Part shown: in pieces, positions 1 to 46,177 of the stretch
How positions within the stretch are numbered: position 1 is the stretch's first letter
Layout of the letters: every line of letters begins with the position of its first letter
Source of the DNA: a virus
Lineage: Duplodnaviria > Heunggongvirae > Uroviricota > Caudoviricetes
DNA length: 46,177 bases
IMG/VR virus record: IMGVR_UViG_2627853910_000001
Direction: 5' to 3' (one strand)
Position numbers and translations under genes: made by a program
Notes under the pieces: model-generated
The model's database searches: none
What the model saw: only the letters and a program-made list of their open reading frames with translations
What the model was told of the DNA's origin: nothing

Positions 1-484
1 ATTTATTATATCTACGATGGTAGGAAATCTTTTCCTATGTGGCAATAGAAATTTACTACATTGCGTATAAGACAAGTTTTCTATGTCTAATAGGAAATGA
101 TGTTTCTTACGTTTTATCGCGTTCTGATGGCTACTGTGTGCGTATTTATCGACGTTTATTGATAAGGCTCGCCCCTTCCTCCTGCAAAGCCCGGCCGTAG
201 GCCTTATTTCGGCATTATATAAATTGATTTTGTATAGTTCGAAACGCGCCGTTTCGAAAAGGATGATCAGGCTGCTCCATGCCTCCGGCAAGTGCCGGAG
301 GAGGTATATTTGAGCGTAGCGATTCGAACCGGCGCGAGCTTTAGCTCGCTGCAAGGGCGAACATATTCACAGGCAAAGCCTGCGTAAGTTGAATAAAGAA
401 AGTCTTAATAAAAGAAAGTGTTTTTGCATTTATTTGTTTAGCGCATCTATTATAAAAAACCATTTGCATATACATATCAAAACT

Positions 485-493
485 GTGGATAAC
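485..493 (-). promoter_or_regulatory. DnaA box (TGTGGATAA on plus = TTATCCACA on minus) in AT-rich region downstream of repA; putative oriR
   Basis: Exact 9-mer match to DnaA box consensus, surrounded by AT-rich sequence downstream of the repA stop. Confidence 0.45.
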
Positions 494-633
494 TTTATTA
501 GCCAATGCCTGTAAAGGCGATATTTTTGCTGTGTTCAGGTTTAGAGAAAATTAATCTAGATTGTTTTTTGAACAGATATTTTATTGCGACGTAGATAATC
601 CTCCGGTAAAACCGGATTCATCATTCAGGTGGG

Positions 634-1482
634 TTAATGTTGGAGTGATTTCCAGGTCTTTCTTAACCTGTTATAACGCTGCTCAACGAGGGATCGTAAA
701 TATGCAAGGTCAGCACCTGGATACATGCCATCAGCAAATTCCTGGCTAACCTCTCTAGTGATTTGATGACGAAGTTCGGCCTCTCCCTTTTCCTGAACAA
801 GACGCGCAGCTCTCTCCGCTGCTTTCTGTTTTGCCTTTATCTCTCTGGCCGTCTTCCTCTGACGCCATACATTCTCCATCTGCTCCTGAATAACAATACG
901 CTTATAATCAGCCTCCGTTATCGCTTTTTTAAGCCGTTCGCTATTCTTCGCATTGAAGTAATTAAGTTTCTGGCTAACCGCACGTCTCCATGCTTGTTCA
1001 GTAATACCGACGGTTTCCAGCAGTTGATCACGAATCTCTATTTTCGCTGGCCAATACTGTTTATTCACCCGATCCCAGCGACGTTCATAATCAATAAAAC
1101 CTAACGCTTTCAGTTGCGACAACGCCCTTGTACAGCGTGTTATAGACTTGTTCCCAGCTTCGGATACGGTAGACAGGCCGCAAAAATCAGCCAACGCCTC
1201 AGCACTGGCCAGAACCCGCTTAGAAATGATGTTTACATGGTGCAAAATCGCAGCAATCACAGCATTAATCGCCCGACGACGATGCTCGTTTATCCGGCGC
1301 TTCCGCTCTGACGGTTGATTAACGTAGAACGCAACCTCACACGTAAGATCACGACCATTAATGCGCTGTAAAGCATCAGATAACACCAGCGGCAGCTTGT
1401 GCGTATGGTGCTTTGGAGGCTGGAACTCCGGCGACAAATTACAAACGTAAGCTGAACGTAGAGACGGCATTGGTCTATCCAT
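634..1482 (-). CDS. repA: Plasmid replication initiator RepA, IncFII (RepFIIA)-like
   Basis: Translation has blocks typical of IncFII RepA1 as recalled (RRRAINAVIAAIL..., GLSTVSEAGNKSITRCTRALSQLKALGFIDYERRWD); start trimmed to internal MDRPMP (282 aa) from the 337-aa track ORF. Confidence 0.7.
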   Translation of the reverse strand: MDRPMPSLRSAYVCNLSPEFQPPKHHTHKLPLVLSDALQRINGRDLTCEVAFYVNQPSERKRRINEHRRRAINAVIAAILHHVNIISKRVLASAEALADFCGLSTVSEAGNKSITRCTRALSQLKALGFIDYERRWDRVNKQYWPAKIEIRDQLLETVGITEQAWRRAVSQKLNYFNAKNSERLKKAITEADYKRIVIQEQMENVWRQRKTAREIKAKQKAAERAARLVQEKGEAELRHQITREVSQEFADGMYPGADLAYLRSLVEQRYNRLRKTWKSLQH

Positions 1483-1526
1483 ATGTTCGCTCTTGCGTCC
1501 ACGGAAAACCAACGTATAATGGGAGT

Positions 1527-1608
1527 TGTCGAGGCGCCCATGGATTGTTGTTGGTTTTTGTTTCCGTGGATGTCGCAAGAAGCCCGCAGATTTATCTGCG
1601 GGCTTTTT
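1527..1608 (+). ncRNA. Candidate CopA-like antisense RNA in the repA leader
   Basis: Plus-strand TATAAT at 1515-1520 with weak -35 TTGCGT 16 bp upstream; intrinsic terminator at 1581-1608; lies antisense to the leader just upstream of repA, as in IncFII replicons. Confidence 0.3.
1581..1608 (+). terminator. Rho-independent terminator (stem AGCCCGCAGA/TCTGCGGGCT, loop TTTA, T5)
   Basis: 10-bp stem followed by TTTTT on plus strand only. Confidence 0.55.
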
Positions 1609-1652
1609 GTTTCCATATCTGGTCACTTTCCAACCAGACACCCACAATCATA

Positions 1653-1667
1653 ACCACGTTACGTGGT
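1653..1667. promoter_or_regulatory. Perfect 15-bp palindrome ACCACGTTACGTGGT upstream of repA (CI-operator-like)
   Basis: Half-site ACCACG identical to left half of operator at 37979-37993 next to the CI-like gene. Confidence 0.4.
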
Positions 1668-1797
1668 TTTAAGAGAACTCTACCACAACACTTTCGGTCA
1701 TGCACGAAGTCTCTCACTGATCGAACGATAATCCACCAGTAAAAGGATCTAAATTGGATCTCGTTTTGCGAGCATCATACTACTGGCCTAACTCCAG

Positions 1798-2352
1798 TCA
1801 ATGATTCCCAGCCGGAAACCTGCGGTAAAGCGTGGATAAGGTAACATCGAAGATAATCGCTATCCGCTTACGTGAAACACCATTCGCAATAAGCCTTCCG
1901 ATCTGTTCCCATTGCTCTGGTGCCAATTTTGAGCGGCGTCCTCCTATCCTGCCGTTAGCCCTTGCCACCGCCAATCCTGCACGCGTTCTTTCAATCATAT
2001 TTTCCCGCTCCATCTCTGCGACTGCACTCAGCATCGTGTAGGCAAAGCGGCCAATTGAAGTGCTAATTTTTATCCCTTCCGTAATCGAAATAAACTCAAT
2101 GTTGTTTGATAAAAAATGGTTAAGTAAATCAACAAGATGAATCAGAGAACGCCCCATTCGGTCCAGCTTCCAGACAATAACCGTATCGCCCGGCTGTAAC
2201 ACCTTAAGTAGCTTATCAAGTCCTGGTCGTTTTGATTTAGCACCGGATATTTTATCTTCAAAAATCCGGTCACATCCTAAACTCCTGAGCGCCTCCAGTT
2301 GTAATTCCAAATTCTGGTCAAAAGTTGACACCCTCGCATAACCATATTGCAT
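1798..2352 (-). CDS. Serine recombinase, DNA invertase of Hin/Gin/Pin/Cin family
   Basis: N-terminal YARVSTxDQ catalytic motif, resolvase core, C-terminal HTH; adjacent to gix-like crossover site. Confidence 0.9.
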   Translation of the reverse strand: MQYGYARVSTFDQNLELQLEALRSLGCDRIFEDKISGAKSKRPGLDKLLKVLQPGDTVIVWKLDRMGRSLIHLVDLLNHFLSNNIEFISITEGIKISTSIGRFAYTMLSAVAEMERENMIERTRAGLAVARANGRIGGRRSKLAPEQWEQIGRLIANGVSRKRIAIIFDVTLSTLYRRFPAGNH

Positions 2353-4482: not shown

Positions 4483-6861
4483 TTACACCTGTGCGACGTT
4501 ATACCATGTGCCATTGATGTATTTTTGTATTGGCCTGAAGATGGCTTCATCATCGCCATCTACTTCACCAATGATTCTTAATCCGGTAATTGCGTGTCCG
4601 GCTTTTTCATAACGACCACCACGCGCCATCAATTGAACAACTCGCGTACCCAGGCGAACATCTCTCACATATCTGGAATCAAAATTGCCATAGTTGCCAG
4701 GAATAACTTGCGAGCCACAAAGCCAGTTACCGTTATTGTCCATGTACGCCTGACCATCGGTGCCATTGGCTGTCCTTGAGTTATTAATCATGTAAAAACC
4801 AAACTGGTAGTTACCAAGTCCACCGACAAAAAATTTGCGTTCTGCATGGTCTTGTCTTAACAAAGCCTGCGCAGAACTTGTTGATACTGCGTTTCTACCA
4901 AAAATGACATTCTGGTTTCGCATATCAATCCATGAGGTTGAGCCACTATTAATAGCAAACCTGTTTGCATACACCCAGGCGTTAGTTGTTATATCTCCTG
5001 TAACATCCAGACCATGCCCCATAGTTATGCGGCCAGTTCTGAGATTAAGCGTAAAGGGACGTAGTGGCCCTATATCACCATTTTCCCCCTCATTCTCTCG
5101 TGTAGGGATGATATGCAGGCATTCTTCAGAACGGCGAAAAATGGCACCAAAAGATGAATTAAATATCCTCAGTGCATTGACTGTCGATATTTTTACTTCA
5201 CTGCTGAAAAGAGCTTTAACAAGAACATACAAAGCATCCCATTTAAGATTCATCAGGTCTTTTGTTGTGGTGCTTTGTTTGCTTCTCCATTTGAAATATT
5301 CATTGCCGTTGTCGCCTGTCTCAAACCACATGTATGAATCAGTGTCACCATCGGCATCATTTTTAAATCCAATCTTCGCCCAGTCAGTATTTCGAATCCA
5401 GGCAAGGATTGAGTCATTTTCAAAAGTAAGCCCACCGGACAAAGTATCGCCATTTTTTTGCACGGCGTTACCAGCCCTGTTTACCGTTTCCTGTAAACCG
5501 AGGTATTCGATAACGGCAGCAACGGTCGATTTCGCAAGAATATCCCGCCCGACTTTTGTCAGGGTTGCCAGGCTGGCGACATCATTCCCCGTAAAATACG
5601 GAAACTTGTCTGCCGCAGTAGCAAGCCCGGCCAGCGCCGTCAGGGTGGCATCTTTCGGTTGCTTACCCGCAAGCGCGTTAGTCATGGTGGTCGCAAAATT
5701 CGGGTCGTTGCCCAACGCCGCAGCCAGCTCGTTCAGCGTATTCAGTGCGTCAGGCGACGAGTCCACGAGGGCAGCGATCGCAGCCATAACATAAGCCGTG
5801 CTTGCGATCTGAGTATTGTTAGTACCTTTTGGCGCAGTTGGTGTTGTTGGCGTTCCGGTCAGCGCAGGACTGTTTAAGGGCGCTTTCTTGTTCGTTTCAT
5901 CCATTACCACCTTTACCGCTTTCGATGTCGCGGCCAGTGTTTCAGACGTGCTGTTGGTTGCACTACTGAGCTGAGTGATTCCCCTTACTGTCAGTGAAGC
6001 TACAGGCACATTTGTTATCTGCTCCCACGAATGCGTGTGATTGGACGGAGCCTTTCCGGCCGCAAGATCATACGCTGCCTTAACAGCCTTTGGTGTTGCG
6101 GCCAGCGTTTCCGAATCACTGTTAGTGGCGCTACTGAGCTGAACAATCCCTTTTCGCGCCGTGGTAGCGTCCTGTGCGGTGTATTTGCCATTAGCCAGGT
6201 CATATGCTGCCTTAACAGCCTTAGGCGTCGCAGCAAGCGTTTCAGACGAGCTATTGGTGGCGCTGCTAAGTTGAACAAAGCCTTTTGAGGTTAAAGTTGC
6301 ATCGGGATGATTACGTGATTGCTCATGTTTCACAATGGCTTGCTTAAGCCGCTTTGCTGAAACAGCAAGGGAATCATCTGTACCTGCATCAATTTCTTGT
6401 TCATTAGCAAACCTTGCCACCCCAACAACAGTTTCGGTCGCGGGAGGATTAATAAACTCAATATCACCAAATGTAATATTTTTAGTATCAAGAGTTTTAA
6501 TTGCTATATCACTTGATATTAAAGCGATAGTAGATGATGCTTTATTTATTATTGCTTGTTCTTGTGAGTATACAGCAAACAACGTACCCTTATTCGTATA
6601 CAATCCTATTGTATGGACAACATACTCATCTTTACTATCATCCTTCGCTGTTACATGAATTGTATCAGGGGAAACAACTTTGCCACCTATTGTGGTAAGT
6701 CGTTTTATTTCGTTTGTTATATTTGTTTGTGAAGTTGACGTGACATAATATCTACTACCTAAACCAACAGAAACAATCTCAACTTTATTTGTTCCTGTTT
6801 TGTTGGCATTAACCAGCTCCTGACGCCCGGCGTCAGTCATCGTAAATAATAATTTACTCAC
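4483..6861 (-). CDS. Tail fibre protein (constant N-terminal part plus invertible C-terminal part)
   Basis: 792 aa; tandem ~40-aa fibre repeats (GxVQLSSATNSxSETLAATPKAVKAAYDLA); crossover site inside the gene. Confidence 0.85.
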   Translation of the reverse strand: MSKLLFTMTDAGRQELVNANKTGTNKVEIVSVGLGSRYYVTSTSQTNITNEIKRLTTIGGKVVSPDTIHVTAKDDSKDEYVVHTIGLYTNKGTLFAVYSQEQAIINKASSTIALISSDIAIKTLDTKNITFGDIEFINPPATETVVGVARFANEQEIDAGTDDSLAVSAKRLKQAIVKHEQSRNHPDATLTSKGFVQLSSATNSSSETLAATPKAVKAAYDLANGKYTAQDATTARKGIVQLSSATNSDSETLAATPKAVKAAYDLAAGKAPSNHTHSWEQITNVPVASLTVRGITQLSSATNSTSETLAATSKAVKVVMDETNKKAPLNSPALTGTPTTPTAPKGTNNTQIASTAYVMAAIAALVDSSPDALNTLNELAAALGNDPNFATTMTNALAGKQPKDATLTALAGLATAADKFPYFTGNDVASLATLTKVGRDILAKSTVAAVIEYLGLQETVNRAGNAVQKNGDTLSGGLTFENDSILAWIRNTDWAKIGFKNDADGDTDSYMWFETGDNGNEYFKWRSKQSTTTKDLMNLKWDALYVLVKALFSSEVKISTVNALRIFNSSFGAIFRRSEECLHIIPTRENEGENGDIGPLRPFTLNLRTGRITMGHGLDVTGDITTNAWVYANRFAINSGSTSWIDMRNQNVIFGRNAVSTSSAQALLRQDHAERKFFVGGLGNYQFGFYMINNSRTANGTDGQAYMDNNGNWLCGSQVIPGNYGNFDSRYVRDVRLGTRVVQLMARGGRYEKAGHAITGLRIIGEVDGDDEAIFRPIQKYINGTWYNVAQV
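5480..5513. repeat. gix/hix-like crossover site, right boundary, inside tail-fibre gene
   Basis: TTCCTGTAAACCGAGGTATTCGATAA, about 23/26 to the Gin gix consensus as recalled. Confidence 0.7.
5905..6300. repeat. Three tandem ~120-bp repeats inside the tail-fibre gene
   Basis: Repeated DNA blocks (TTAACAGCCTTxGGxGTxGCxGCxAGCGTTTCxGA...) encoding the repeated fibre motif. Confidence 0.5.
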
Positions 6862-6891: not shown

Positions 6892-7473
6892 TTAGCACTC
6901 GCCAATTAATCGTACATAAGACACAGGCTGACAAGCACCAACAATACCGACACCACCAGAAACATTGGCTGCTTGCGAAAATGTAAATAATGTTCTTGCC
7001 GACTTTGCGCTCTTGATACTTCTTAACGTATCTTCCAACATCTCTTTCGAAGGAACGGCACCATCAAAAGAGTTAATCGAAGCAACAATTGAGGCTGTAT
7101 ATGGTTCGCCAGGTGGTGATGTTTCAAACCATTCTGTTATGTTTACCTCTCCACCCAAGCTATTTACTACATCTTCAACCGCTGCCCTTGTACCCTTTAT
7201 TCGCTTTGTTCGTATTATTGATTTAAAAACAGAACGCTTTAACGATACAGGCCAACTATCCCTCCATGTATCAGCATTCCATTGCCAGGCTAAATGATCG
7301 AGAACAACTGAATCCAGGTTATCAACAACGCTATATATTTCTGTCTTATATATTAAATTGTTAATTGCTTGTAGTTCATCATCGATAGCTTTCGACATAG
7401 CTATCACGTTGGGATCTCTAGCTAAGTTAGGAGGTAAAACATCCAACAAGCCAACATTAAAGATATCAGCCAT
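6892..7473 (-). CDS. Baseplate/tail protein, P2 gpI-like by position
   Basis: Position between J-like baseplate gene and tail fibre; size. Confidence 0.5.
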   Translation of the reverse strand: MADIFNVGLLDVLPPNLARDPNVIAMSKAIDDELQAINNLIYKTEIYSVVDNLDSVVLDHLAWQWNADTWRDSWPVSLKRSVFKSIIRTKRIKGTRAAVEDVVNSLGGEVNITEWFETSPPGEPYTASIVASINSFDGAVPSKEMLEDTLRSIKSAKSARTLFTFSQAANVSGGVGIVGACQPVSYVRLIGEC

Positions 7474-8590
7474 CCTCTAACCCCGCATACTGGCAATTTA
7501 TATTTCTCTCTCTGGCGACCTGCGTCTCTCCAACCACAGTAAATACAGGACTTGATATTTCTAATCTTTTAGCCCCAGCATTTTTTAAACGTTGAATAAT
7601 TTCATCTGGATTTATATCTCTTCCCATAACAGAACGTTGCCATTGTTTATACTCATCAATAGCTTTCTCAACCTCACCTTGAATTAAAGTTGTTCTGTTT
7701 TTGTCCGATGAGTTAATCCAGTATTTAATTATTATATCGTATTCAATGCTCTCTGGTTTCTTAACAAGAACTTTATCTGTGAATGGTCGAATATTAGTTG
7801 CAGAGAGAACGCTATTTATCTGCTCTAATAATTCATCAGAAGGTATATCTCCGTTCTCTAACAAAGAACGGATTTCTACAGTTCCGGGCGATGGTGTATA
7901 TACATTCACATCTTTTATATTCTGATTGGCTGTTCTTGTCCAATATTTATAAGAATCCTCCGGCCCTGCTGTAGATAGTTTTTCCGGCGAAAGTTTTATT
8001 CTTTCAGCATAATTATCATCTGACTCTGTATCAGCACCAGAATTAGATGTTGTTAGATTCCTTACGCTGGAAACATACGGCAACGGAGTCACCAACTCAT
8101 TTATTTGCCCTGGTAAAAAGCCATTCCCCGATAAACCAGGTATAACAGCATATCCTGAGACTGTACCAACTGTTTTCCCAGCTGGTATTTCCAACAAAAC
8201 ATCTGTTTGGAAAATAACACTATTTCCAGTTGAAATTTGAGTGCCAGCAGGTATTGTATATATCCCAGATAATTTTGTTGACAGATTAAACTCAAATGTA
8301 GTCAAGGCAGATTGAGCTTCCAGCCTAGGCGTATCCGTCAGATAGCCTATATGATCGAGATATTCACCCCCACCATATGTAAGAAGGTTTTGTTTTGCAG
8401 AAAAATCGATAGCTTTTCTTTGCTGTATAATAATCTCACACAATGACAAGATGAATAATCTACGTGGATCAGCAGGTGCTAATGTTTCACCTGTTATACT
8501 CTCAAAAGCCCTGATTGAACGAGTTGTTATATCAGTCGGGTTAGAATCTGCGAAAGTAATATCTGGCAAACCACCGCGCGGCAACGTCAT
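7466..8590 (-). CDS. Baseplate protein J-like
   Basis: 374 aa; position after gp25/W-like gene; overlapping stop/start coupling. Confidence 0.65.
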   Translation of the reverse strand: MTLPRGGLPDITFADSNPTDITTRSIRAFESITGETLAPADPRRLFILSLCEIIIQQRKAIDFSAKQNLLTYGGGEYLDHIGYLTDTPRLEAQSALTTFEFNLSTKLSGIYTIPAGTQISTGNSVIFQTDVLLEIPAGKTVGTVSGYAVIPGLSGNGFLPGQINELVTPLPYVSSVRNLTTSNSGADTESDDNYAERIKLSPEKLSTAGPEDSYKYWTRTANQNIKDVNVYTPSPGTVEIRSLLENGDIPSDELLEQINSVLSATNIRPFTDKVLVKKPESIEYDIIIKYWINSSDKNRTTLIQGEVEKAIDEYKQWQRSVMGRDINPDEIIQRLKNAGAKRLEISSPVFTVVGETQVARERNINCQYAGLEDG

Positions 8591-8907
8591 TCTCTAACTC
8601 CTATCACAAGTTTTGGCCTAATAAAACCATCAGAAACGTCCGTTCTTTCAAAAGTAACAGAATGGATAATCGCTCTAGGCTCAAACTCACTAATTTTTTG
8701 AATTATTTCTCGTGTTGCTGTAGCAATAAAAATTGGGCTGGGGCTATCAACAAGACTTGAATTAACTCCTAATTTTCTGGCATATGGTACAGTGCCAATC
8801 TGAGTATTAATAATAGTAGAGACATTTTGCAAAACTTCTTCTACAACTGTTTTGGGCGACCAATCAATCGAGTAAGAAGGTGATGATATGGTAAACGTAT
8901 TATTCAT
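8587..8907 (-). CDS. Baseplate wedge protein, GPW/gp25-like
   Basis: 106 aa; typical size and position. Confidence 0.6.
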   Translation of the reverse strand: MNNTFTISSPSYSIDWSPKTVVEEVLQNVSTIINTQIGTVPYARKLGVNSSLVDSPSPIFIATATREIIQKISEFEPRAIIHSVTFERTDVSDGFIRPKLVIGVRE

Positions 8908-9371
8908 AATAATTTACCTAACGCACTTCTAGTTTTTGACTCTATATTGCCAGCAATATCAACTAATGCTTCTTTCAGAGAGGTCTGTCCGACTTCCTGT
9001 AATTTAATGCCGACGATAATCACTCGTGGATTCCCAGTTGGACCGAAATAAGTCCATGATTCCTCTATATCTGTAATTATAAAATTACCAAAATACTGAA
9101 TACCAATTACAACAGGATTTACTTCCTGAATTGATTGCATTGTCCTAAGTAATGAAAGCGCAGCCAATGGAACAATGCCAAGTGTTGTATCCAACCGCAT
9201 ATTAAAACTAACTTCATCCAGATCTGGACCTATATCCTCCAGAACAGGTTTAAGCCCAATAACATCATGGCGCGCAACACGACGCTTTGACGTCCTTTTA
9301 AAATTGTTGAACGTATTCACCACTATTGATGAGGCAACAAAAGGCATTGTACCAAGCATACCCACAATCAT
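8904..9371 (-). CDS. Baseplate protein (Mu gp46 position)
   Basis: Position between spike and gp25-like genes. Confidence 0.35.
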   Translation of the reverse strand: MIVGMLGTMPFVASSIVVNTFNNFKRTSKRRVARHDVIGLKPVLEDIGPDLDEVSFNMRLDTTLGIVPLAALSLLRTMQSIQEVNPVVIGIQYFGNFIITDIEESWTYFGPTGNPRVIIVGIKLQEVGQTSLKEALVDIAGNIESKTRSALGKLL

Positions 9372-9988: not shown

Positions 9989-9990
9989 AA

Positions 9991-36322: not shown

Positions 36323-36723
36323 TTGGTATCCCCTGGTACTTCACCAAGACTAAGATCAAACCCAATTTCGTCTTTAACTGACTGCGGCAACAGCTCCCAC
36401 GTCTGCGCACACAAAAATTCATCGGTGCCATAACGCTCAACAAAGCGAGCACAATTACTCAGGGGAGGGTGACGAACGGCGATATGCGGAGGCACGCGCC
36501 CACCACCAGGCACAACACCGCGATGATGTGGTGCGCACAATCCAAAGCTATGAAAGTGGCAATTCTCATCAACGCTGCCGTAATCAGGATCGTGATGTAG
36601 CTCCGTCCACAGCTCTGGATTCTCAATTTCACGGCCATCAATAATGCAAGCTATGCAACCCACGTGAGTGAGCACCGCTTGTATATAAAGTTTCTCTTTC
36701 TTCGTTGGTGTACGTCCGTTCAT
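36319..36723 (-). CDS. Cys/His-rich putative HNH/Ref-like nuclease
   Basis: Paired Cys and His clusters (CIACII..., CHFHSFGLCAPHH). Confidence 0.3.
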   Translation of the reverse strand: MNGRTPTKKEKLYIQAVLTHVGCIACIIDGREIENPELWTELHHDPDYGSVDENCHFHSFGLCAPHHRGVVPGGGRVPPHIAVRHPPLSNCARFVERYGTDEFLCAQTWELLPQSVKDEIGFDLSLGEVPGDTK

Positions 36724-36956
36724 CAGCGCCCCTTACCATTGATAAAGAGGTTGAACTCGTTGATTAACTGGACATACATGCTTCTGGCCGCGTAGTTCTT
36801 TGCCAGCTCTTTACGGGATGAGATCCCGCAAAACTCACGCAGAATCACAGAGGCCTCAGAACTGTTTGAAACGTTCTTCCCTGTTTTACTGGTCAGAAAG
36901 CGCCAGAATTGGGAATTCTGGCAATGCATCGCAGCACCGCGAACATAACTACTCAT
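36723..36956 (-). CDS. Hypothetical small protein
   Basis: 77-aa ORF in coupled early operon. Confidence 0.3.
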   Translation of the reverse strand: MSSYVRGAAMHCQNSQFWRFLTSKTGKNVSNSSEASVILREFCGISSRKELAKNYAARSMYVQLINEFNLFINGKGR

Positions 36957-37468
36957 TGATGGCCCCCGTCATTTCTGGTGCTTTTCACCGTGCGGCTTCT
37001 TAAAAACCTGCCATCACGAACAACAGACACTTCTCGTTTACCCAACCTCATTTCACGGCGGTAACATTCAGAAAATGCCTCGTCCGGCATCATATAAATG
37101 CGACGCTTCGCCTCCGTATCCAGAAGGGAACGGCTTGGGGTTACATATAAAAACGACTCATCAATAGGGACAAAACCACGAGCAAGAATTGCTGGCAGAA
37201 TGCCAGGAAGAACGCAGAAAACAGCTCCACGATGCAGCAACATCTGGTACTCCATGACCTCCGTTATCCCCGTGACTACTGTTACGGTGTCACGTCTGTT
37301 ACGGCTGGCAACCAGTCGCTGCACACGTCCAATTTTCTGATCTACAGATAGATGTTTGCTATCGTTATCAATATGATCGATAACAAATCCTTTAATCGTT
37401 TGATCAAGGTAGTGCACCACCTGCGATTGAATCTGGTGATTATCACCAAAGAAGGCCAGAATCATCAT
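36953..37468 (-). CDS. Hypothetical early protein
   Basis: 171-aa ORF in early operon. Confidence 0.35.
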   Translation of the reverse strand: MMILAFFGDNHQIQSQVVHYLDQTIKGFVIDHIDNDSKHLSVDQKIGRVQRLVASRNRRDTVTVVTGITEVMEYQMLLHRGAVFCVLPGILPAILARGFVPIDESFLYVTPSRSLLDTEAKRRIYMMPDEAFSECYRREMRLGKREVSVVRDGRFLRSRTVKSTRNDGGHQ

Positions 37469-37959
37469 TCCTCAAGCCTCCCAAGTGCTGAACGCCGGGC
37501 GTTGCTAATCTCCTTATGAATCAGCTCGATATCGCTGGAATCTTTATTCTTAAGCTCCAGCACGGTAATCGCATCACGAACCTCTGAAACGGTTACGTGT
37601 GAGTGTTTCCAGCGAGCAATGAATCGCGGACCGCGTAGATTGCAACGCTCCGCAGGCATCCCCAGCTCAGAGAAAACCGCTTTCAGCCTTGATAAGCAGT
37701 TAACAGGGAGATTCCCTTTGATCTTGTTCTGCCGAACCGATGTGCCATCGCTACGCTGGCGCTGACGTTCGGCAAAATCTGCCGCCCATTGCTGGACGTT
37801 AATCCGGCCTTCCGAATACGCCACCAGCAGCGTCAGGTTATCCGCACGAGGGAATCTCTCGAAGCGATACCAGGCACCAATCAGTGATGACGTAAAGCCA
37901 AACTTTCTGGCAACACCAATTTGGCCTCCATTTTCGTCAACCCACTCCTGAAAGGTCAT
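37465..37959 (-). CDS. First early-operon protein, Cro/YdaS-like HTH N-terminus
   Basis: Divergent from CI-like gene across operator region; GGAG RBS. Confidence 0.4.
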   Translation of the reverse strand: MTFQEWVDENGGQIGVARKFGFTSSLIGAWYRFERFPRADNLTLLVAYSEGRINVQQWAADFAERQRQRSDGTSVRQNKIKGNLPVNCLSRLKAVFSELGMPAERCNLRGPRFIARWKHSHVTVSEVRDAITVLELKNKDSSDIELIHKEISNARRSALGRLEE

Positions 37960-37978
37960 TTAACGAACTCCAGTTAAA

Positions 37979-38014
37979 ACCACGATATGTGGTATTAAAA
38001 CCACATATCGTGAG
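37979..38014. promoter_or_regulatory. Two adjacent 15-bp operators (ACCACGATATGTGGT and inverted copy)
   Basis: Same 15-mer in opposite orientations between divergent Cro-like and CI-like genes. Confidence 0.55.
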
Positions 38015-38081
38015 TTTTTCAATGGGCGAAACAAAAAATAACCTTCTATTTGTGGTCCACCTCTCGTCTTACCATGTGAAA

Positions 38082-38096
38082 ACCACTAAATGTGGT
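38082..38096. promoter_or_regulatory. Third operator ACCACTAAATGTGGT adjacent to TATAAAT -10 upstream of CI-like gene
   Basis: Same ACCAC-N5-GTGGT architecture; TATAAAT at 38101-38107. Confidence 0.45.
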
Positions 38097-38133
38097 AATG
38101 TATAAATAACCCACCATTCACGATTGATGAGAC

Positions 38134-38790
38134 ATGAAAAGCAACGACGAGAACATCAAGAAAGAAATAGGTCTGCGCATTCAGACTCTACGGAAACAAT
38201 CCGGCATGACTGCCGGAGATCTCCAGCAAGTCACTGGAATAGGCTTAAGCACCTTGCAGAACTATGAGGCCGGATTAAGACAACCATCGATACCTGCCAT
38301 CAAGAAAATCGCGCACGCCCTGAAAGCATCAGCGCCTTATATCGCGTGCTTAACAGATAACCCGTTCCCACCCCAGAATACTAACGCTCCTGTTATTCCT
38401 GGGCTTGTAGCTATAAAAAATGACATAGCATCGCACGCCGGAGAAAAGCCAGTGCTGGCGATAGAACAGGAGATTCTACGAAGCAAGAACATCAACCCAT
38501 CGTCTCTGTCAGTTCTCCAGAGCAACGATGAGTTAATGTCACCAACAATATCCCCTGGCTCCCAAGTCCTGATTAATACAGACGATACAGAGATTCATGA
38601 GGGGATCTATGCCCTTGAAGACAGAAATGGCCTGGTTGTTTTGAGGCACTGTAGAGTCATACCGGGTGACAATGCTGTTATGCTGTCAACCGAAAGGGAT
38701 GCTGAAATGAACACTAAGCATCTGAATAACGAGGAATTTAAGCGTTATAAAGTTCTTGGCCGCGTAGTTAGTGTTGTCAACTGGTTATGA
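38134..38790 (+). CDS. CI/LexA-like repressor (N-terminal HTH, C-terminal S24 peptidase-like domain)
   Basis: HTH (MTAGDLQQVTGIGLSTLQNYEAG) plus C-terminal autocleavage-like domain. Confidence 0.75.
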   Translation: MKSNDENIKKEIGLRIQTLRKQSGMTAGDLQQVTGIGLSTLQNYEAGLRQPSIPAIKKIAHALKASAPYIACLTDNPFPPQNTNAPVIPGLVAIKNDIASHAGEKPVLAIEQEILRSKNINPSSLSVLQSNDELMSPTISPGSQVLINTDDTEIHEGIYALEDRNGLVVLRHCRVIPGDNAVMLSTERDAEMNTKHLNNEEFKRYKVLGRVVSVVNWL

Positions 38791-39257: not shown

Positions 39258-39283
39258 CTGCAAGCGGGCTAACGCCCGCTTAT

Positions 39284-39392
39284 ATGATTATAGATTTATA
39301 TAATTATATAAAACGCTTTCCATCCGCCAAAAAGTTGGTTATGCTTACCTCGTTCTATAAATATAGATTTATAGAATTATATAACCAAACAC
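39284..39392 (+). promoter_or_regulatory. AT-rich iterons upstream of parA (candidate centromere/operator)
   Basis: ATTATAGATTTATATA at 39287-39302 and variant at 39362-39377. Confidence 0.45.
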
Positions 39393-39407
39393 ATGGAGTC
39401 TCGACAA

Positions 39408-40061
39408 ATGACTATCTCTGTAGGTATTTTCAACGGAAAAGGCGGCGTAACCAAATCAACAATTGCCCGTGCTTTAGCAGTTGCTTATGCAAAGGCTGGC
39501 TGGAATGTATGCCTGATCGATATGGATGTGCTTAACGGAACGGTAACGCGTTGGGTACAACGCAGAATGGCCAACAATATCGAACCAGCAATCGCGGCGC
39601 AGCCGTGCGGCACACCATCACAAGTCCAGAAAATCATCGAATCAGAAGTATACGACCTGGTTATCGTTGATGGCGGTGCCTACGCATCTGAATCAGTACC
39701 GAAGCTATCTGAATTTCTGGATATGGTTATTTTGCCAACCCGATTCTCTACCGATGACCTGGAAACCACCGTTAACACTGCTCACGGCATCGTTAAAAAG
39801 GGTGTGCCAATCAAGAAAATTTGCATGGTGTTTTCCGGCGCGGCTGAAAATGAAGCTGACTATATTGAAGCCCAAGAGTACCTGGCTAATACGCCATACT
39901 TTGTTGTCGATAAGTACATTCCCCACAAGCCAGCTCTGAGCAAAGCTCAGGATAAGGGCTTAAGCCTCATTGAATGCTCATACGTTGCGCCACGCAAAAA
40001 GGCAGACGACGTTATTCAGGGGATTATCAACCAGCTTGAGGCTCTGACTACTGCCGCGTAA
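39408..40061 (+). CDS. parA: ParA-family partition ATPase
   Basis: Deviant Walker A GKGGVTKST; start set at ATG with GGAG RBS (track ORF begins 39393). Confidence 0.8.
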   Translation: MTISVGIFNGKGGVTKSTIARALAVAYAKAGWNVCLIDMDVLNGTVTRWVQRRMANNIEPAIAAQPCGTPSQVQKIIESEVYDLVIVDGGAYASESVPKLSEFLDMVILPTRFSTDDLETTVNTAHGIVKKGVPIKKICMVFSGAAENEADYIEAQEYLANTPYFVVDKYIPHKPALSKAQDKGLSLIECSYVAPRKKADDVIQGIINQLEALTTAA

Positions 40062-40104
40062 TATATAATTATAGTTTTATAGATTTATATAAGAGGGGAT
40101 ACAC

Positions 40105-40353
40105 ATGGCCGCACCATCAAAACCACCAAAGAAGAACAGCAAAGGCGTACCGCCATCGATCGAACAACCGCAGGTTTTCGACCCGACTGAAACGCCAACC
40201 AGAACCAAATCAGGTGGGGCACAAATGGCGTTTAACGTCGACCCTGAATTTAAACGCGAGTACAAAACGTTCGCCAGTTCAATGGATATGTCATTGAAAG
40301 AAGTGCTGACAAAATCTTTTGAGTTACTCAAGGCTCAATACAACCAGAAGTAA
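40105..40353 (+). CDS. Small partition partner, ParG/RHH-like centromere-binding protein candidate
   Basis: 82 aa directly after parA; disordered basic N-terminus then helical C-terminus; iteron TATAGATTTATATA immediately upstream. Confidence 0.5.
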   Translation: MAAPSKPPKKNSKGVPPSIEQPQVFDPTETPTRTKSGGAQMAFNVDPEFKREYKTFASSMDMSLKEVLTKSFELLKAQYNQK

Positions 40354-40750: not shown

Positions 40751-40772
40751 AAAAAAGGCCCCCGAAGGGGCC
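40751..40772 (-). terminator. Terminator GGCCCC-GAA-GGGGCC with T-run on minus strand
   Basis: GC stem; A6 on plus strand upstream gives T6 after hairpin on minus. Confidence 0.5.
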
Positions 40773-40778
40773 TAATCG

Positions 40779-40901
40779 CTACTTGCTGCTAATGTTTATC
40801 GTCACATTCAGAGCGTTATCAGTAATCTTCCAACCCTCCCCATGTGGCGTAAACAAAGCTCCAGTAACAACGATAAAAATACACATACAGTATTTTTTCA
40901 T
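40779..40901 (-). CDS. Small hydrophobic peptide (40 aa), candidate type I toxin or small membrane protein
   Basis: MKKYCMCIFIVVTGALFTPHGEGWKITDNALNVTINISSK; terminator 7 nt downstream. Confidence 0.35.
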   Translation of the reverse strand: MKKYCMCIFIVVTGALFTPHGEGWKITDNALNVTINISSK

Positions 40902-40966
40902 TGTGTGGCCCTTACAGGCCGTTTCACGGCATCTCCACCGACGAAAATGACGCGAGAGCAAGCACT

Positions 40967-40983
40967 CCGCTTGTGCTTGCGTG
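40967..40983. repeat. 17-nt direct repeat CCGCTTGTGCTTGCGTG (copy 1, in putative 5-prime UTR of small ORF)
   Basis: Identical 17-mer at 41216-41232; copy 1 sits in an 8-bp hairpin. Confidence 0.7.
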
Positions 40984-41149
40984 TACGGCAAGTGGATGAT
41001 CCTTTCCTTAAAGTCGGTGCCCGGGTGCGAATCGGCGAAAAGGCCCCAAGCCATATTACACGTCCTCGCCTTCATAATGAAGGAATAACAATTGCTTTTA
41101 TTACATGTAATTACATCCGAAGAAGTTAAAAAACTTCATTCTGCATGAA

Positions 41150-41316
41150 CTAAGGAACTAAATTTCTTTATATGAATAGTGGACTATTCACCTCAGTTGA
41201 GTAAGAATAGATACGCCGCTTGTGCTTGCGTGGTTGTTTACACAACGACGTTATGCTGAAAGGACCGCGAATCCGATCAGCACAAAAGAACCGTCCTCAA
41301 TAGGGCGGTTTTTTTG
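41150..41316 (+). ncRNA. Candidate divergent antisense sRNA carrying the 17-nt repeat, ends at terminator 41289-41316
   Basis: 17-mer at 41216-41232 on plus strand; intrinsic terminator downstream; promoter not confidently located. Confidence 0.3.
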
Positions 41317-41334
41317 TTTCTGCCTACCAATAAA

Positions 41335-41349
41335 CCCACGCTATGTGGT
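41335..41349. promoter_or_regulatory. CI-operator-like site CCCACGCTATGTGGT upstream of antirepressor operon
   Basis: 14/15 match to operator at 37979-37993. Confidence 0.4.
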
Positions 41350-41552
41350 TGTCTCTGTTAAAATCCCGCCGTATTGACATGAATGCGCCATTGGTGGACA
41401 CTTTCCGAGCCGTAGCAAAATCTACGGCCGGGATTGGCGTCCCGATAATCATCATGGCGCATACCGCGTTAGCGGTTTTTTTATGCGTAAAGCACGGCTA
41501 CACCCGAATTATGGTGGGGCGTGCGGGGGAGCCGTAAGGCTCGCCGGGTATC

Positions 41553-41840
41553 ATGATGACCGGTTACGCCAACCCTGTACGTCTCACCACCTCACTGATT
41601 GGCGTCAGCGGTGGTGATTATTCCAATATCAAAACTGGAACTATCATCATGACAAACTTACCCCATGACTATTACGTCAACCTCGTAAAGATCCTTCTCA
41701 AGAAAGCCTCATACGCCGATAAATTCCGCCTGGCTGAAATCATCGAGCGCGAAGCTATGCGCATCGCCAGCAACGATAACGCTGTTTCTGACGCAAAAAT
41801 CTCCCTCGTAACCAAAGTAGTTATGGGAGGTGCAAAATGA
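41553..41840 (+). CDS. Hypothetical protein translationally coupled to antirepressor (icd-like position)
   Basis: Stop overlaps antirepressor ATG (ATGA). Confidence 0.4.
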   Translation: MMTGYANPVRLTTSLIGVSGGDYSNIKTGTIIMTNLPHDYYVNLVKILLKKASYADKFRLAEIIEREAMRIASNDNAVSDAKISLVTKVVMGGAK

Positions 41841-43012
41841 AAACGCTTCCGACCGTTAACACCCTACAACCTATCCTGCATAACCAGCTCCCCGTTATCA
41901 CTACTGAACTACTGGCAAAGCTATACGGCACAGACGTTGATAACATCAAAAAAAATTACTCACGTAACGCAAACCGCTTTATTGAAGGAAAGCATTTTTT
42001 CAAAGTGGCTGGCGATGAGTTAAAAACTTTGCGAGTGACTTTAAGTCACTCACAAAATTTGCGGGTAGCTTTAAACTACTCACAAAATACCATCTCCCCA
42101 AAAACCCGCACCCTCATCCTCTGGACAGAACGCGGGGCTGCACGTCACGCCAAAATGCTCGAAACCGATCAGGCGTGGGATGTATTCGAACGGCTGGAAG
42201 ACTGCTATTTCAACCAGAACGCGAAAACGGCAGCGACCGTAACCGTCTCGCCAAACAATGCTCGTGAGGTCGTCGATACGCTCAACGCCAAACCGATGTT
42301 TTACATTAAGGTGTGCAATAACGAGCCACTCACAACCTCAGCCGATGTTGCCCAGGCATTCAGCACCACAAACAATTCCATCGTTATGGCCATCGATGCG
42401 TTACGCATTCCTCGCACAGCTGCGGCACGTCATTTCTTTAAAGAGCAACGACCGCTGGAAGGAAGCGACCGCGAAATAACAATCTATCGCATGACAAAAG
42501 ACGGATTTACCTTGCTCATGGAAAGTATCGACGGTCCAGGCGTGAAGGATATCAAGCTGGCCTACATTGAAGCCTTTAACGCTATCAGCAGCGTGTTAAA
42601 AACACAGTACGAGCGCGATCTGGCTAAACGACTGTACCAGGAAAAAACGATTATCCGCGCGGCAACAGAGCATAATCGGCTATTAACGGAACCGAACTAC
42701 AGGAAGGAACTAATCAAGGAGTTTGACAAGGCAACAGGGAAAACCAAAGCGGCGCTAAATCTGCCAGCAATGACTCAGGAAAATGTGATATCAGCCTTAC
42801 TTCTTGATCTACTCAGAAACGCCAGAGCACTTATCAGCTTTGACGAAAACCTGAATCCTCAACTCAAGCTACTACCACCGACAGGCAAAGTAGTCGACCA
42901 GGCTGATCACAACAGCATACTCAGCGTACTGGATGCAAACCTGCCAACCAGGACACTACAGGATCTGATAAAAACATGTGCTGATAAGCTGGCACAGAAA
43001 AGCAGACCATAA
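41837..43012 (+). CDS. Antirepressor (ORF6N/Rha-like domains)
   Basis: N-terminal ITTELLAKLYGTDVDNIKKNYSRNANRF and central PMFYIKVCNNEPLTTSADVAQAF segments typical of phage antirepressors. Confidence 0.7.
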   Translation: MKTLPTVNTLQPILHNQLPVITTELLAKLYGTDVDNIKKNYSRNANRFIEGKHFFKVAGDELKTLRVTLSHSQNLRVALNYSQNTISPKTRTLILWTERGAARHAKMLETDQAWDVFERLEDCYFNQNAKTAATVTVSPNNAREVVDTLNAKPMFYIKVCNNEPLTTSADVAQAFSTTNNSIVMAIDALRIPRTAAARHFFKEQRPLEGSDREITIYRMTKDGFTLLMESIDGPGVKDIKLAYIEAFNAISSVLKTQYERDLAKRLYQEKTIIRAATEHNRLLTEPNYRKELIKEFDKATGKTKAALNLPAMTQENVISALLLDLLRNARALISFDENLNPQLKLLPPTGKVVDQADHNSILSVLDANLPTRTLQDLIKTCADKLAQKSRP

Positions 43013-44157: not shown

Positions 44158-44538
44158 TTACTTAACGAGAAATAAAAATGGTTTATTGTTCGGAGGTGTA
44201 ATCGGGGCTGGCTCGCTTTTGCTCATGCGATCAGTGTACCAGGCCAGCTCCTTGTCAAAGTAAGCCTGATTAAAATAGGCCATGAATGTAGTTTCAAATC
44301 CATAACGACCGCTAATACGCAGCATCTGATTGCCGTTCTCTGTTTCCAGATATACCTGGGCACGTTCCTGATTCTCCTTCAGCCAGGTTAAAGCCTCGTC
44401 GCACGAGGACACACGATACTCATCATCGTAGCCGTCATCGATGCGGCTTGAAGAAGAACGGCAAATCACGCCAACAGAACCAGCCAGGATAGTTTGAATT
44501 TTAAGGAAAGCGTTTTTGCGGATTTTAATCATGCTCAT
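44158..44538 (-). CDS. Hypothetical protein, first gene after repeated promoter cassette copy C
   Basis: 126-aa ORF; ATG immediately follows the repeat. Confidence 0.45.
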   Translation of the reverse strand: MSMIKIRKNAFLKIQTILAGSVGVICRSSSSRIDDGYDDEYRVSSCDEALTWLKENQERAQVYLETENGNQMLRISGRYGFETTFMAYFNQAYFDKELAWYTDRMSKSEPAPITPPNNKPFLFLVK

Positions 44539-44655
44539 CGGGTTATCTCCGGTTTAACCAGGGCGGGTATCGCTCGGTTTCGGGTATAACCCTAGGAAAT
44601 TTTTTCCCACCTGTAAAGCACTTTTTATATAAATCTATAATTATATAATTCTATG
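44539..44655 (-). repeat. Repeated promoter/leader cassette, copy C
   Basis: 116/117 identical to copy A. Confidence 0.85.
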
Positions 44656-44660
44656 AGCAC

Positions 44661-44686
44661 AAAAAAGCCCCTTTGCAACAGGGGCT
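44661..44686 (-). terminator. Terminator after HigA-like gene
   Basis: 7-bp stem followed by T6 on minus strand. Confidence 0.5.
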
Positions 44687-44701
44687 TATCATTCGTTCTG
44701 A

Positions 44702-45001
44702 TCAGATGTTAAACGCTATTCGTTTTCCTGTGGGAAGCTCAACATCCAGGCTTAATTTGCCTCCCATAGCTTCAACGTAACGCTTTAATGTCGCCAGCTT
44801 TAAATCATTTCCGCGCTGCTCCAGCTTTGTTACTGCTGGCTGACTAATACCCATCGCCTCAGCAACCTGTTTTTGTGATAACTGGAGTTCTTCACGCATC
44901 ATCTGCAAGCCGACCTCAAGAATCATCTCATCTGCCATTTCTTTAATTCGCGCCTGGCTTTCAGGTGAACGGCTGGCAATCACCTCATCTAATGTTCTCA
45001 T
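44702..45001 (-). CDS. HigA-like antitoxin (XRE HTH)
   Basis: HTH LSQKQVAEAMGISQPAVTKLEQ; follows and overlaps toxin gene. Confidence 0.65.
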   Translation of the reverse strand: MRTLDEVIASRSPESQARIKEMADEMILEVGLQMMREELQLSQKQVAEAMGISQPAVTKLEQRGNDLKLATLKRYVEAMGGKLSLDVELPTGKRIAFNI

Positions 45002-45354
45002 TACTTGCTCTCCAGTGTGTTCAGATGTGCTGCAAACTCATCCTCAGCTATACGCACCAGTTTTTTATAAAACCGCTTATCGTTACTTTTGTCTCCTGCA
45101 CAAAGAACGATAGCCCGGCGAATCGGATCGAACGCATAAAAGGCTCTTATCGGACGGCCAGAAAACTGAACGCGAAGCTCTTTCATATTTTTGTACCGAG
45201 AACCTTTTACGGTATCGGCATATGGCCTGGGTAACTCAGGTCCGTAAACCTGTAGATTTTTCAAATCAGCCAAAACCTTTTCCTGAAGAGCGTCTTCTTG
45301 CTCATTTAGCCAGTCGTCAAATCGCTGGCTAAAAAGTACCGTCCACATGATCAA
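45001..45354 (-). CDS. HigB-like toxin (RelE/ParE superfamily), toxin-first arrangement
   Basis: ~115 aa; upstream of and coupled to HTH antitoxin. Confidence 0.6.
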   Translation of the reverse strand: MIMWTVLFSQRFDDWLNEQEDALQEKVLADLKNLQVYGPELPRPYADTVKGSRYKNMKELRVQFSGRPIRAFYAFDPIRRAIVLCAGDKSNDKRFYKKLVRIAEDEFAAHLNTLESK

Positions 45355-45592
45355 CCCTATAACCTGTAGTTTATATCACTAACTATATAACCCGTAGGTT
45401 ATAATTTCAAGAAAAACGGGGCTATTTAACATAATGGACGTTATCGGCACCACCGGATCACCGTTCGTTGTCGGATCTAAAAAATCCGCTCAAAAGATCA
45501 TGTTTTCCTGGGCGTTTTCCACCGTTTTTTATGTTGCTTATTTGTTAATAAAATCTCGTTTCCAGTTTCGCCTCATTTTCGACACGAAAGCC

Positions 45593-45883
45593 CTATTTTT
45601 GTGACTTTACTCCTGGCATATGAACTTCCCAGCGTCGAATCCCCATAGCTGCGCAAAAATCAGCCACATAATTCAATCCCGCCCATTCGCGGATACCACC
45701 ACGGGCTTTTTCAATGAAAACGGCAATCCCTTTTTTATTGAGAGCAAAAAGCCGCCAGCTTTTTGTCACTTCGTCCTGGGTAGCCACAACACAAGTGAAA
45801 GCTCCCATGCGATACAGGTCCAAGAACTCTTTGCGTGTTTTGCGTACAAGTTCCATAACAAACCTCATATTTGCATGTTTCAA
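45593..45883 (-). CDS. Hypothetical protein
   Basis: 96-aa ORF overlapping upstream HTH gene stop. Confidence 0.3.
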   Translation of the reverse strand: MKHANMRFVMELVRKTRKEFLDLYRMGAFTCVVATQDEVTKSWRLFALNKKGIAVFIEKARGGIREWAGLNYVADFCAAMGIRRWEVHMPGVKSQK

Positions 45884-46173
45884 ACATCTGTTTTGTTATC
45901 AATGAAGATTAACCCTAACCCAGCGAAGTAACACAGCAGCGCCCAGGCTGCATACGGAATGCTGGATCTGGATGTGGACTCCTTTAACATCTGCCAGTTG
46001 CGAACATTGCGACTATCTTTTAAGCCAAGTTTTTTGGCCAACTGCGAGCCGCTCATTCCGGTCAGGCCAATGACTGCCCGAACTTCTCCACATGTAGGAG
46101 ATTCCCATTCATCCGCTTTTTTTAAACAAGCCGGATTCAACATTTTTAAAACAGTATCTTTATCCATAACCAT
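45880..46173 (-). CDS. HTH (XRE-like) protein with hydrophobic C-terminus
   Basis: HTH segment LTGMSGSQLAKKLGLKDSRNVRNWQ; start 4 nt from window edge. Confidence 0.4.
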   Translation of the reverse strand: MVMDKDTVLKMLNPACLKKADEWESPTCGEVRAVIGLTGMSGSQLAKKLGLKDSRNVRNWQMLKESTSRSSIPYAAWALLCYFAGLGLIFIDNKTDV

Positions 46174-46177
46174 CTCC

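Follow-up and report, generated by a model that had tools for sequence, protein, structure and literature searches.

We analysed the 46,177-bp DNA of the IMG/VR record IMGVR_UViG_2627853910_000001 (Caudoviricetes), called the window below, which carries the virion, packaging, and lysis genes of a contractile-tailed phage together with genes for plasmid replication (repA), partition (parA and the gene of an 82-amino-acid partner), and addiction (Table 1). RepA and the ParA/partner pair lie on the same 46,177-bp circle as the full phage gene set, and no integration module accompanies them. Because domain searches, circular closure in near-identical records, and database occurrence agree, we conclude that the window is very probably the complete genome of a temperate myovirus that is passed on as a circular plasmid of low copy number, i.e., a phage-plasmid. 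An initial annotation, made from the letters of the window, had proposed just such an architecture without an integrase, and all the modules it named lie at or near where it had placed them, including the ParA/small-partner operon with iterons around both genes, the HigB/HigA-like pair, the lambda-order head genes, the contractile tail, the invertible fibre segment, and the lysis cassette. It did not contain the C4/isrK and antirepressor module, the ryfA/timP-like toxin, the seven operators, or the eight iteron arrays described here.

Table 1. Features of the window, in order of position (strand: +, -, or a point for features given without a strand)
Feature	Position	Strand	Basis and remarks
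Candidate replication origin (oriR-like), 3' of repA	390..500	-	DnaA box 484-492 and adjoining AT-rich stretch; IncFII-type layout
repA, replication initiator	634..1482	-	Alternative start codon 1470; Pfam IncFII_repA PF02387 E=1e-43; annotated RepA in relatives
Predicted countertranscript to repA leader (~86 nt)	1527..1612	+	Sequence reading and folding, -41 kcal/mol
Perfect 17-bp palindrome of repressor-operator type, repA leader/promoter region	1652..1668	.	AACCACGT-T-ACGTGGTT; pattern search
Cin/Hin-type serine DNA invertase, 184 amino acids	1798..2352	-	Pfam Resolvase and HTH_7; annotated hin in OR545053.1
Invertible tail-fibre segment	2427..5503	.	Inverted cix-like sites 2427-2442 and 5488-5503; repeat search, exact cores
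Tail fibre gene S (constant and currently joined variable part)	4483..6861	-	Annotation of relative at 99.9% identity; similar to S genes of P1, P7, and Mu
Contractile tail and baseplate module	6892..16432	-	Relatives' annotation; Pfam Phage_tube, Phage_GPD
Tape measure	11193-13985	-	Relatives' annotation
Tube	14431-14952	-	Relatives' annotation
Sheath	14969-16432	-	Relatives' annotation
Head-tail joining and lambda-order head module	16432..24704	-	Pfam Phage_cap_E, CLP_protease, Phage_portal_2, GpA_ATPase, GpA_nuclease
Capsid (gpE-type)	17942-18985	-	Pfam/relatives' annotation
Decoration protein	19006-19389	-	Relatives' annotation
ClpP-type protease, frameshifted in window	19399-20466	-	Pfam CLP_protease
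Lambda-family portal, frameshifted in window	20459-22034	-	Pfam Phage_portal_2
DUF6148 protein	22031-22270	-	Head module
TerL (large terminase subunit), gpA-type	22282-24138	-	Pfam GpA_ATPase, GpA_nuclease
TerS (small terminase subunit)	24144-24704	-	Head module
DNA-modification/accessory cluster (putative)	24695..31418	-	Pfam; PADLOC MTase_II
ParB_N/Srx-like proteins	24695-25285, 27952-28575	-	Pfam
Noncoding gap, 558 bp, upstream of packaging genes; candidate cos/packaging site	25286..25842	.	Phage record starts
ParB_N-methyltransferase fusion	26579-27958	-	Pfam
Promoter/5' untranslated region cassette, copy 1	30715..30835	-	Four 8-bp iterons; before gene 30449-30718; conserved in three relatives
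MT-A70 methylase	30831-31418	-	Pfam; DUF2513 protein in same cluster
tRNA-Met (anticodon CAT)	31726..31801	-	ARAGORN, Rfam; between lysis cassette and MT-A70 gene, iteron array adjacent
Iteron array between lysis cassette and tRNA-Met	31932..31979	.	Repeat search
Lysis cassette	32095..33637	-	Two holins, GH108 endolysin 32370-32912, Rz-like gene 32095-32373; relatives' annotation
Leftward early operon	34013..37959	-	Two unknown proteins, Ref-type nuclease 36319-36723, DUF1064, DUF3560 34372-35439, small protein with weak winged-helix matches 34013-34315; Pfam/PHROG scans
Iteron array abutting ribosome-binding site (5' side) of gene 34013-34315	34300..34339	.	Repeat search
Promoter/5' untranslated region cassette, copy 2	35435..35555	-	Directly before DUF3560 gene; 90% identical to copy 1
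Immunity region	37976..38790	+	Operator palindromes 37978, 37999, 38081; CI-type repressor gene 38134-38790
Type Ib-like partition locus	39280..40353	+	parA 39405-40061; 82-amino-acid partner gene 40105-40353; three iteron arrays
Other iteron arrays	30805-30836, 35525-35556, 39280-39311, 39353-39392, 40061-40100, 44625-44656	.	Repeat and pattern searches
ryfA/timP-like type I toxin RNA	40751..41048	-	Rfam ryfA 135.5 bits (gathering score 80); 40-amino-acid hydrophobic peptide, start 40901
Candidate antitoxin small RNA (TimR-like), divergent	41195..41316	+	Ends in terminator hairpin; repeat search
P1 immI-like module	41334..43012	+	Operator, isrK-like RNA, C4 RNA, small ORF, antirepressor
Operator of immI-like module	41334-41350	.	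Palindrome search
isrK-like RNA	41409-41482	+	Rfam 73 bits (50)
C4 antisense RNA	41507-41594	+	Rfam 81 bits (45)
Small open reading frame (ORF, 63 codons)	41649-41840	+	Between C4 RNA and antirepressor
ORF6N and Rha antirepressor	41837-43012	+	Pfam ORF6N and Phage_pRha
Promoter/5' untranslated region cassette, copy 3	44535..44655	-	Directly before gene 44158-44538; 99% identical to copy 1
higB-higA-type toxin-antitoxin pair, toxin first	44702..45354	-	HigB 45001-45354, Gp49 E=7e-23; antitoxin 44702-45001, HTH_3 E=4e-10

The window aligns almost end to end with the circular Escherichia coli plasmid pRHB38-C13_5 (CP055628.1, 46,125 bp), at 99.65% identity over positions 1-41932 and 97.9% over 42100-46177. 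It has no terminal overlap, and its end joined to its start (6 kb) aligns unbroken to CP055628.1, to which it is 99.4-99.9% identical; given this contiguous junction, the window is, by alignment, one complete and circularly permuted replicon. In PLSDB we identified 26 records covering at least 80% of the first 25 kb of the window at ~98-99.9% identity, which are 32-49 kb long, come from E. coli, E. fergusonii, and Klebsiella aerogenes, and are typed as nonmobilizable, with no replicon type given by MOB-suite. Across the aligned parts of the window, identity to CP055628.1 ranges from 97.9 to 99.9%. The Yersinia phages vB_YpM_39/41/44 (OR545053-55; host Y. pestis EV76), each ~49 kb and ~98% identical to the window, encode the same RepA, ParA, HigB, and invertase genes. 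These phages, CP055628.1, and the plasmids pECO-b75 and that of ATCC 25922 (below) agree with the window in gene order, RepA, ParA and partner, HigBA, operators, iteron arrays, and the three promoter cassettes. Apart from isolated phages that carry the same plasmid genes, the relatives are known solely as E. coli plasmids, and the lineage has been deposited under both descriptions, "plasmid" and "Yersinia phage."

We further scanned 5,426 complete E. coli genomes and found the segment spanning repA and the candidate origin in 71 of them (~1.3%), with all 82 places of occurrence on plasmids and none on a chromosome. The carriers include the quality-control strain ATCC 25922 (Seattle 1946), whose 48,488-bp plasmid NZ_CP009073.1 is a member of the lineage, as is the E. 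coli plasmid pECO-b75 (NZ_CP009861.1), and dozens of independent closed plasmid assemblies share a size of 46-50 kb. Head genes occur in 72 of the genomes, 81 of their 82 places being on plasmids; the remaining place is chromosomal, though no chromosome has the repA-origin segment. Pfam, PHROG, and NCBIfam scans, like the annotations of relatives, revealed no tyrosine integrase, large serine recombinase, or protelomerase, and no ORF of the window is both protelomerase-sized and unaccounted for; the 184-aa serine invertase is the sole site-specific recombinase of the window. Flanking host genes are likewise absent from this complete circle, as the initial annotation had reported, and since the replicon is whole, no other part of it remains that could hold an integrase or att sites.

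The plasmid half of the window centres on repA. RepA passes the NCBIfam model RepA_IncFII_LM (NF040977; 232 bits, cut-off 70) as well as the Pfam model but fails the IncFII equivalog model incFII_RepA (TIGR03474; 78.8 bits, cut-off 446.9), and its identity to true IncFII RepA proteins is 31-40% over partial length; by these profile matches it is a member of the broader IncFII/IncL-M family, not of IncFII proper. The "IncFII replicon" of the initial annotation must therefore be narrowed, the initiator and its DnaA box being present while incFII_RepA fails and Rfam shows no CopA RNA at E<=0.5. Outside the lineage, the nearest RepA (36% identical) is encoded by an Enterobacter plasmid with genes for type IV secretion and KPC, which we rejected as a relative because it is not a phage-plasmid. 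The only perfect DnaA box of the window, TTATCCACA at 484-492, lies ~140 bp beyond the repA stop codon, and the 401-500 stretch is 74-78% AT; because this layout is of the IncFII type, we regard 390-500 as a candidate replication origin. On the opposite strand, the predicted countertranscript has a promoter (TTGCGT-16-TATAAT, -10 starting at 1515) and two stem-loops, the second a terminator hairpin followed by a T-run, and would fit the control style of the IncFII/IncL-M family. Our search for a leader peptide returned only a 19-codon ORF (1651-1592) ~110 nt upstream of repA, and no ORF with a canonical start overlaps the repA start.

The partition locus encodes a Walker-type ParA of 218 aa (motif KGGVTKS; Pfam CbiA/ParA) that has no N-terminal DNA-binding domain, scores below threshold with NCBIfam ParA_partition, and matches ParF weakly (4dzz, E=3e-4). 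Its 82-aa partner has no match in Foldseek searches against the PDB, in PDB phmmer and profile searches, in Pfam at E<=10, or in NCBIfam. An AlphaFold model of the partner (predicted local distance difference test, pLDDT, 65) has residues 1-40 disordered, then a short extended stretch and helices at 47-59 and 62-79, which is compatible with a dimer of the ribbon-helix-helix type, like ParG and omega. Among 5.8 billion proteins, the partner has homologues within the lineage only, none of them below 79% identity, and no ParA relative in IMG/VR falls below 93%; covariation of partner and iterons across divergent relatives, which we considered, is impossible with homologues this similar.

Around these genes, and well beyond them, lie arrays of an 8-bp iteron, TTATAKAW. 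Searched as a double unit, it has 44 matches in the window against 0.76 expected by chance, and these form eight intergenic arrays spread over 14 kb of phage genes. Two of the arrays bracket the par promoter (TTTCCA-17-TATGCT), and the third array of the locus lies directly before the partner gene. Three further arrays belong to a 121-bp cassette present in three copies (90-99% identical), each consisting of iterons, a promoter (TTTACA-17-TAAGGT), a ~45-nt untranslated region (UTR), GGAGA, and the ATG of the gene behind; copy 3 has one 8-bp unit more than its counterpart in CP055628.1. None of the small RNAs (C4, isrK, TimR-like, and repA antisense) is predicted to pair with the 5'UTR of the cassette better than shuffled controls do. 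The arrays occur at matching positions in three relatives and are absent from Vibrio phage XM1 (below) and from an unrelated RepA plasmid.

Two loci are of addiction type. In the higB-higA-type pair, the toxin and antitoxin genes overlap by one base, and relatives carry them annotated as a RelE/ParE toxin with an XRE regulator (CP055628.1) and as higB2 (OR545053.1). The second locus resembles the chromosomal ryfA/timP-timR system (PMC7667032): 20 nt of the divergent RNA (41213-41232) are complementary to the ryfA RNA at 40964-40983, with a predicted duplex energy of -42.6 kcal/mol, and the ryfA-like locus with this RNA would be a putative second addiction module.

In the immunity region, the initial annotation had proposed a CI/Cro-like switch. 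The CI-type repressor is borne out by its HTH_3 domain (Pfam, E=4.5e-11), whereas no Cro was identified, the first leftward gene (37465-37959) having no recognisable domain in Pfam and PHROG scans; what we find instead is an antirepressor module with small RNAs, similar to that of P1. The operator palindrome AACCAC-N5-GTGGTT has nine pattern matches in the window against 1.4 expected, and seven dispersed putative operators were recognised, at 1652-1668, 37978-38015 (two, starting at 37978 and 37999), 38081-38097, 38832-38848, 40679-40695, and 41334-41350. Three of them sit between the repressor gene and the leftward operon, and the one at 41334 precedes the antirepressor operon. Of the six best operator positions, five are shared with CP055628.1, OR545053.1, and pECO-b75, and the 40679 site is found again in CP055628.1 only; the palindrome in the repA leader is identical in all three.

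Cleavage of the repressor mediated by RecA looks unlikely, judging from its sequence, because the S24-like part is below threshold (18.4 bits, cut-off 23.3) and the motif position reads NDELMSPTI by eye, without the catalytic Ser (BLASTP against LexA was uninformative). LexA/SOS boxes are also not enriched in the window (17 against 13.6 expected), and these observations together make induction via the antirepressor the more likely route. By its Rfam and Pfam matches, the arrangement of C4 RNA, small ORF, and antirepressor is the immI layout of P1 and P7, although the antirepressor is not homologous to P1 Ant and the c4-a1b1 target model stays below threshold (42 bits, cut-off 46.7; Rfam). Inside the antirepressor gene, positions 41933-42099 have no counterpart in CP055628.1 and identity nearby is 92-98%, and this region appears to be a mosaic hotspot.

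The phage half of the window follows familiar gene orders. The head genes run TerS, TerL, DUF6148 protein, portal, protease, decoration, capsid, which is the lambda order, and the tail genes run in a Mu-like order of sheath, tube, chaperone, tape measure, gpD-like hub, V, W-like, J, I, and fibre. The 3.1-kb invertible segment carries Sv'/U' on the + strand (2434-3923) and U/Sv on the - strand (3952 to ~5490) and shares 95.7% identity with the C segment annotated in P7. Because the phage record OR545053.1 begins at window position 25699, within the noncoding gap that lies upstream of the genes for packaging (the gene offsets of OR545054.1 agree), the gap is suggested as the candidate cos site. 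The Rz-like gene of the lysis cassette is similar to the Rz-like spanin of mEp390.

The head genes also hold a peculiarity of this copy. Seven single-base insertions relative to CP055628.1, each copying the adjacent base, fall in the protease (19477, 19931, and 20283), the portal (20636), a small hypothetical gene (29494), and noncoding DNA (29638 and 33591), and frameshifting insertions are found in the window only, among the members of the lineage. Four of them lie within 1.2 kb of protease and portal sequence in an otherwise 99.9% identical stretch and split both genes into several ORFs, and shortened relatives (31-39 kb) are known, as might be expected if this copy were a decaying phage-plasmid, kept as a plasmid only, whose protease and portal have been inactivated by real frameshifts. 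We consider this unlikely, since all seven changes are insertions that duplicate a neighbouring base, several of them in runs of 5 to 11 identical bases, and base-duplicating insertions in homopolymers are typical of errors in sequencing or assembly. Substitutions number only two in the same 2 kb, and protease and portal are intact in every relative with listed annotation; the insertions are probably sequencing errors.

Much less probable still is an ordinary temperate or pseudolysogenic phage that uses RepA as its lytic initiator and is carried as a plasmid only transiently. RepA is the sole replication protein found and so must serve lytic growth, and unstable episomal carriage has been reported for the Y. 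pestis phage HQ103 (PMC11177050), a 32-kb phage that we rejected as a relative because it is unrelated to the element. Transient carriage is nonetheless hard to square with a ParA/partner operon, two toxin systems, a countertranscript, and a plasmid-type origin, all present in the window, or with closed plasmids in 71 complete genomes from unrelated hosts and years, the long-passaged ATCC 25922 among them. That the window is an integrative prophage caught as an excised circle, or a chromosomal segment misassembled as a plasmid, is scarcely credible: the one chromosomal head-gene place would fit, but the complete circle has neither integrase nor flanking host genes, the repA-origin segment is chromosomal in none of its 82 places, and a size of 46-50 kb recurs in dozens of closed plasmids assembled independently.

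Several points weigh against the plasmid-maintained temperate phage that we favour. In this copy, +1 insertions disrupt the protease at three places and the portal at one, and if the insertions are real the copy would be without virion production. Evidence that the lineage produces virions comes from GenBank metadata, and we found no publication describing it. On the plasmid side, Rfam gives no CopA match even at E<=0.5 and no other family for the repA antisense RNA, and the partner could be placed in no protein family, a low-confidence model being what suggests a ribbon-helix-helix fold. On the phage side, neither Cro nor lytic replication genes were identified, and the assignments of the repressor to its operators and of the partner to the iterons are putative.

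A temperate phage maintained as a plasmid would work as follows. In the plasmid state, the CI-type repressor would occupy operators at the divergent early promoters, at the antirepressor operon, and possibly in the repA leader; the countertranscript would further limit RepA synthesis, with host DnaA acting at the origin. ParA and its partner would segregate copies via the iteron arrays, and the HigBA (type II) and ryfA-like (type I) toxins would penalise plasmid loss. Induction would probably proceed via the ORF6N/Rha antirepressor, whose operon contains C4- and isrK-type RNAs as in P1 immI, and derepression would start a 34-kb leftward transcription unit and raise RepA. No helicase, primase, loader, or second initiator was found in Pfam and PHROG scans, and RepA therefore presumably serves lytic replication too; an operator in the repA leader would provide a simple switch from plasmid to lytic replication. 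The terminase, of the lambda gpA type, would package DNA starting at a site within the gap at 25.3-25.8 kb, and the Cin-type invertase may alternate two fibre tips and so change host range.

More tentatively, and as a possibility that we regard as doubtful on balance, two DNA-binding proteins may serve the plasmid half and the phage half alike and so connect them, the partner at the iterons and the repressor at the repA-leader operator. The partner would be an array binder like omega and ParG, and the iterons would serve as par centromere and operator and, placed just upstream of the -35 element in the three cassettes and before two further gene starts, would make the partner a global regulator of phage operons, with the dispersed arrays perhaps acting as multiple centromeres. 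The repressor, on the perfect operator of the repA leader, would let one replicon of the IncFII/LM type pass from copy-controlled replication to lytic amplification upon derepression, and such a single-replicon switch would explain the absence of a second replication module. If true, the lineage would offer a compact system, open to experiment, in which plasmid maintenance and lytic development are coordinated by a prophage repressor together with a partition protein.

Among known systems, P1 and P7 are similar in being myoviruses maintained as circular plasmids with RepA, partition, and addiction functions, in having a C4 antisense RNA upstream of an antirepressor, and in their Cin-type invertible fibre segment. 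The P1 repressor also acts at many dispersed operators, as proposed for the window. The window is, however, about half their size, with an unrelated head and tail module, an IncFII/LM-type RepA without origin iterons, a small ParA with an 82-aa partner in place of ParB, and a repressor of the HTH_3 type rather than P1 C1; Cre/lox and a separate lytic replicon (repL) were not found. DNA similarity to P1, P7, and D6 is limited to the fibre segment.

For the partition system, the closest parallels are omega of pSM19035, which is both a regulator and a centromere protein and binds repeat arrays at several promoters, and ParF/ParG of TP228. The TP228 proteins are likewise a small ParA without an N-terminal DNA-binding domain and a short partner with a long flexible N terminus followed by a strand-helix-helix pattern, a pattern that in the window comes from the low-confidence model. 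Boxes recur every 8 bp around the par promoter in TP228 as in the window, parH/OF of TP228 consisting of 4-bp boxes and 4-bp AT-rich spacers (PMC3130281). Unlike either system, the window has a partner with no sequence or fold match to ParG or omega, a TTATAKAW unit, and arrays at eight sites over 14 kb. N15 is similar to the window in size and does not integrate, but it is a linear siphovirus with protelomerase and type Ia SopAB whereas the window is circular. N15 has its centromere sites scattered between genes of the phage, and its repA expression responds to the prophage repressor. Its centromere comprises four separate sites, IR1-4 (PMC7205306).

We compared the lineage by gene repertoire and size range with the ten named phage-plasmid types of tyPPing Table 1 (AB_1, P1_1, P1_2, N15, SSU5_pHCM2, pMT1, pCAV, pSLy3, pKpn, and cp32), and it matches none of them. 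Grouping with pSLy3, which the initial annotation had named among groups for comparison, was rejected, as pSLy3 belongs to the SSU5 supergroup, whose members are far larger (~107 kb). The closest distinct phages are Vibrio phages X29, phi 2, Rostov 7, and vB_VpaM_XM1, whose TerL proteins are 63-65% identical to that of the window, and for the X29-like phages a family "Weiviridae" has been proposed (PMC11432961). The annotation of XM1 gives the same virion order as the window, with a ParB-like nuclease, terminase through sheath, tape measure, baseplate, and fibres, but XM1 has two integrase genes and lacks RepA, ParA, iterons, and operator palindromes. The lineage thus seems to combine a virion module of the X29 type with a module for plasmid maintenance.

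Since the X29-like phages share its combination of head and tail, the mosaic is not unusual, contrary to the initial annotation, and the lineage itself is frequent. Its sequence is already public, and its architecture is real but not unusual; the regulatory wiring by shared iterons and operators is the only potentially novel part. We found no paper that describes the lineage or links its "plasmid" and "Yersinia phage" deposits, a 2018 survey of Enterobacterales plasmid prophages lying outside our search.

Accessory genes differ among members of the lineage, and pECO-b75 has another fibre module and no invertase. In the window, the ParB_N/Srx and MT-A70 genes look, from their domains, like a DNA-modification cluster; none of its ParB_N proteins is the partition ParB, and a PADLOC search for defence systems matched methyltransferases only. 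Finally, a 68.5-kb metagenome contig (L010, IMGVR_UViG_3300029841_000009) encodes a ParA identical to that of the window and exceeds one genome unit, and it could be a concatemer or a cointegrate.

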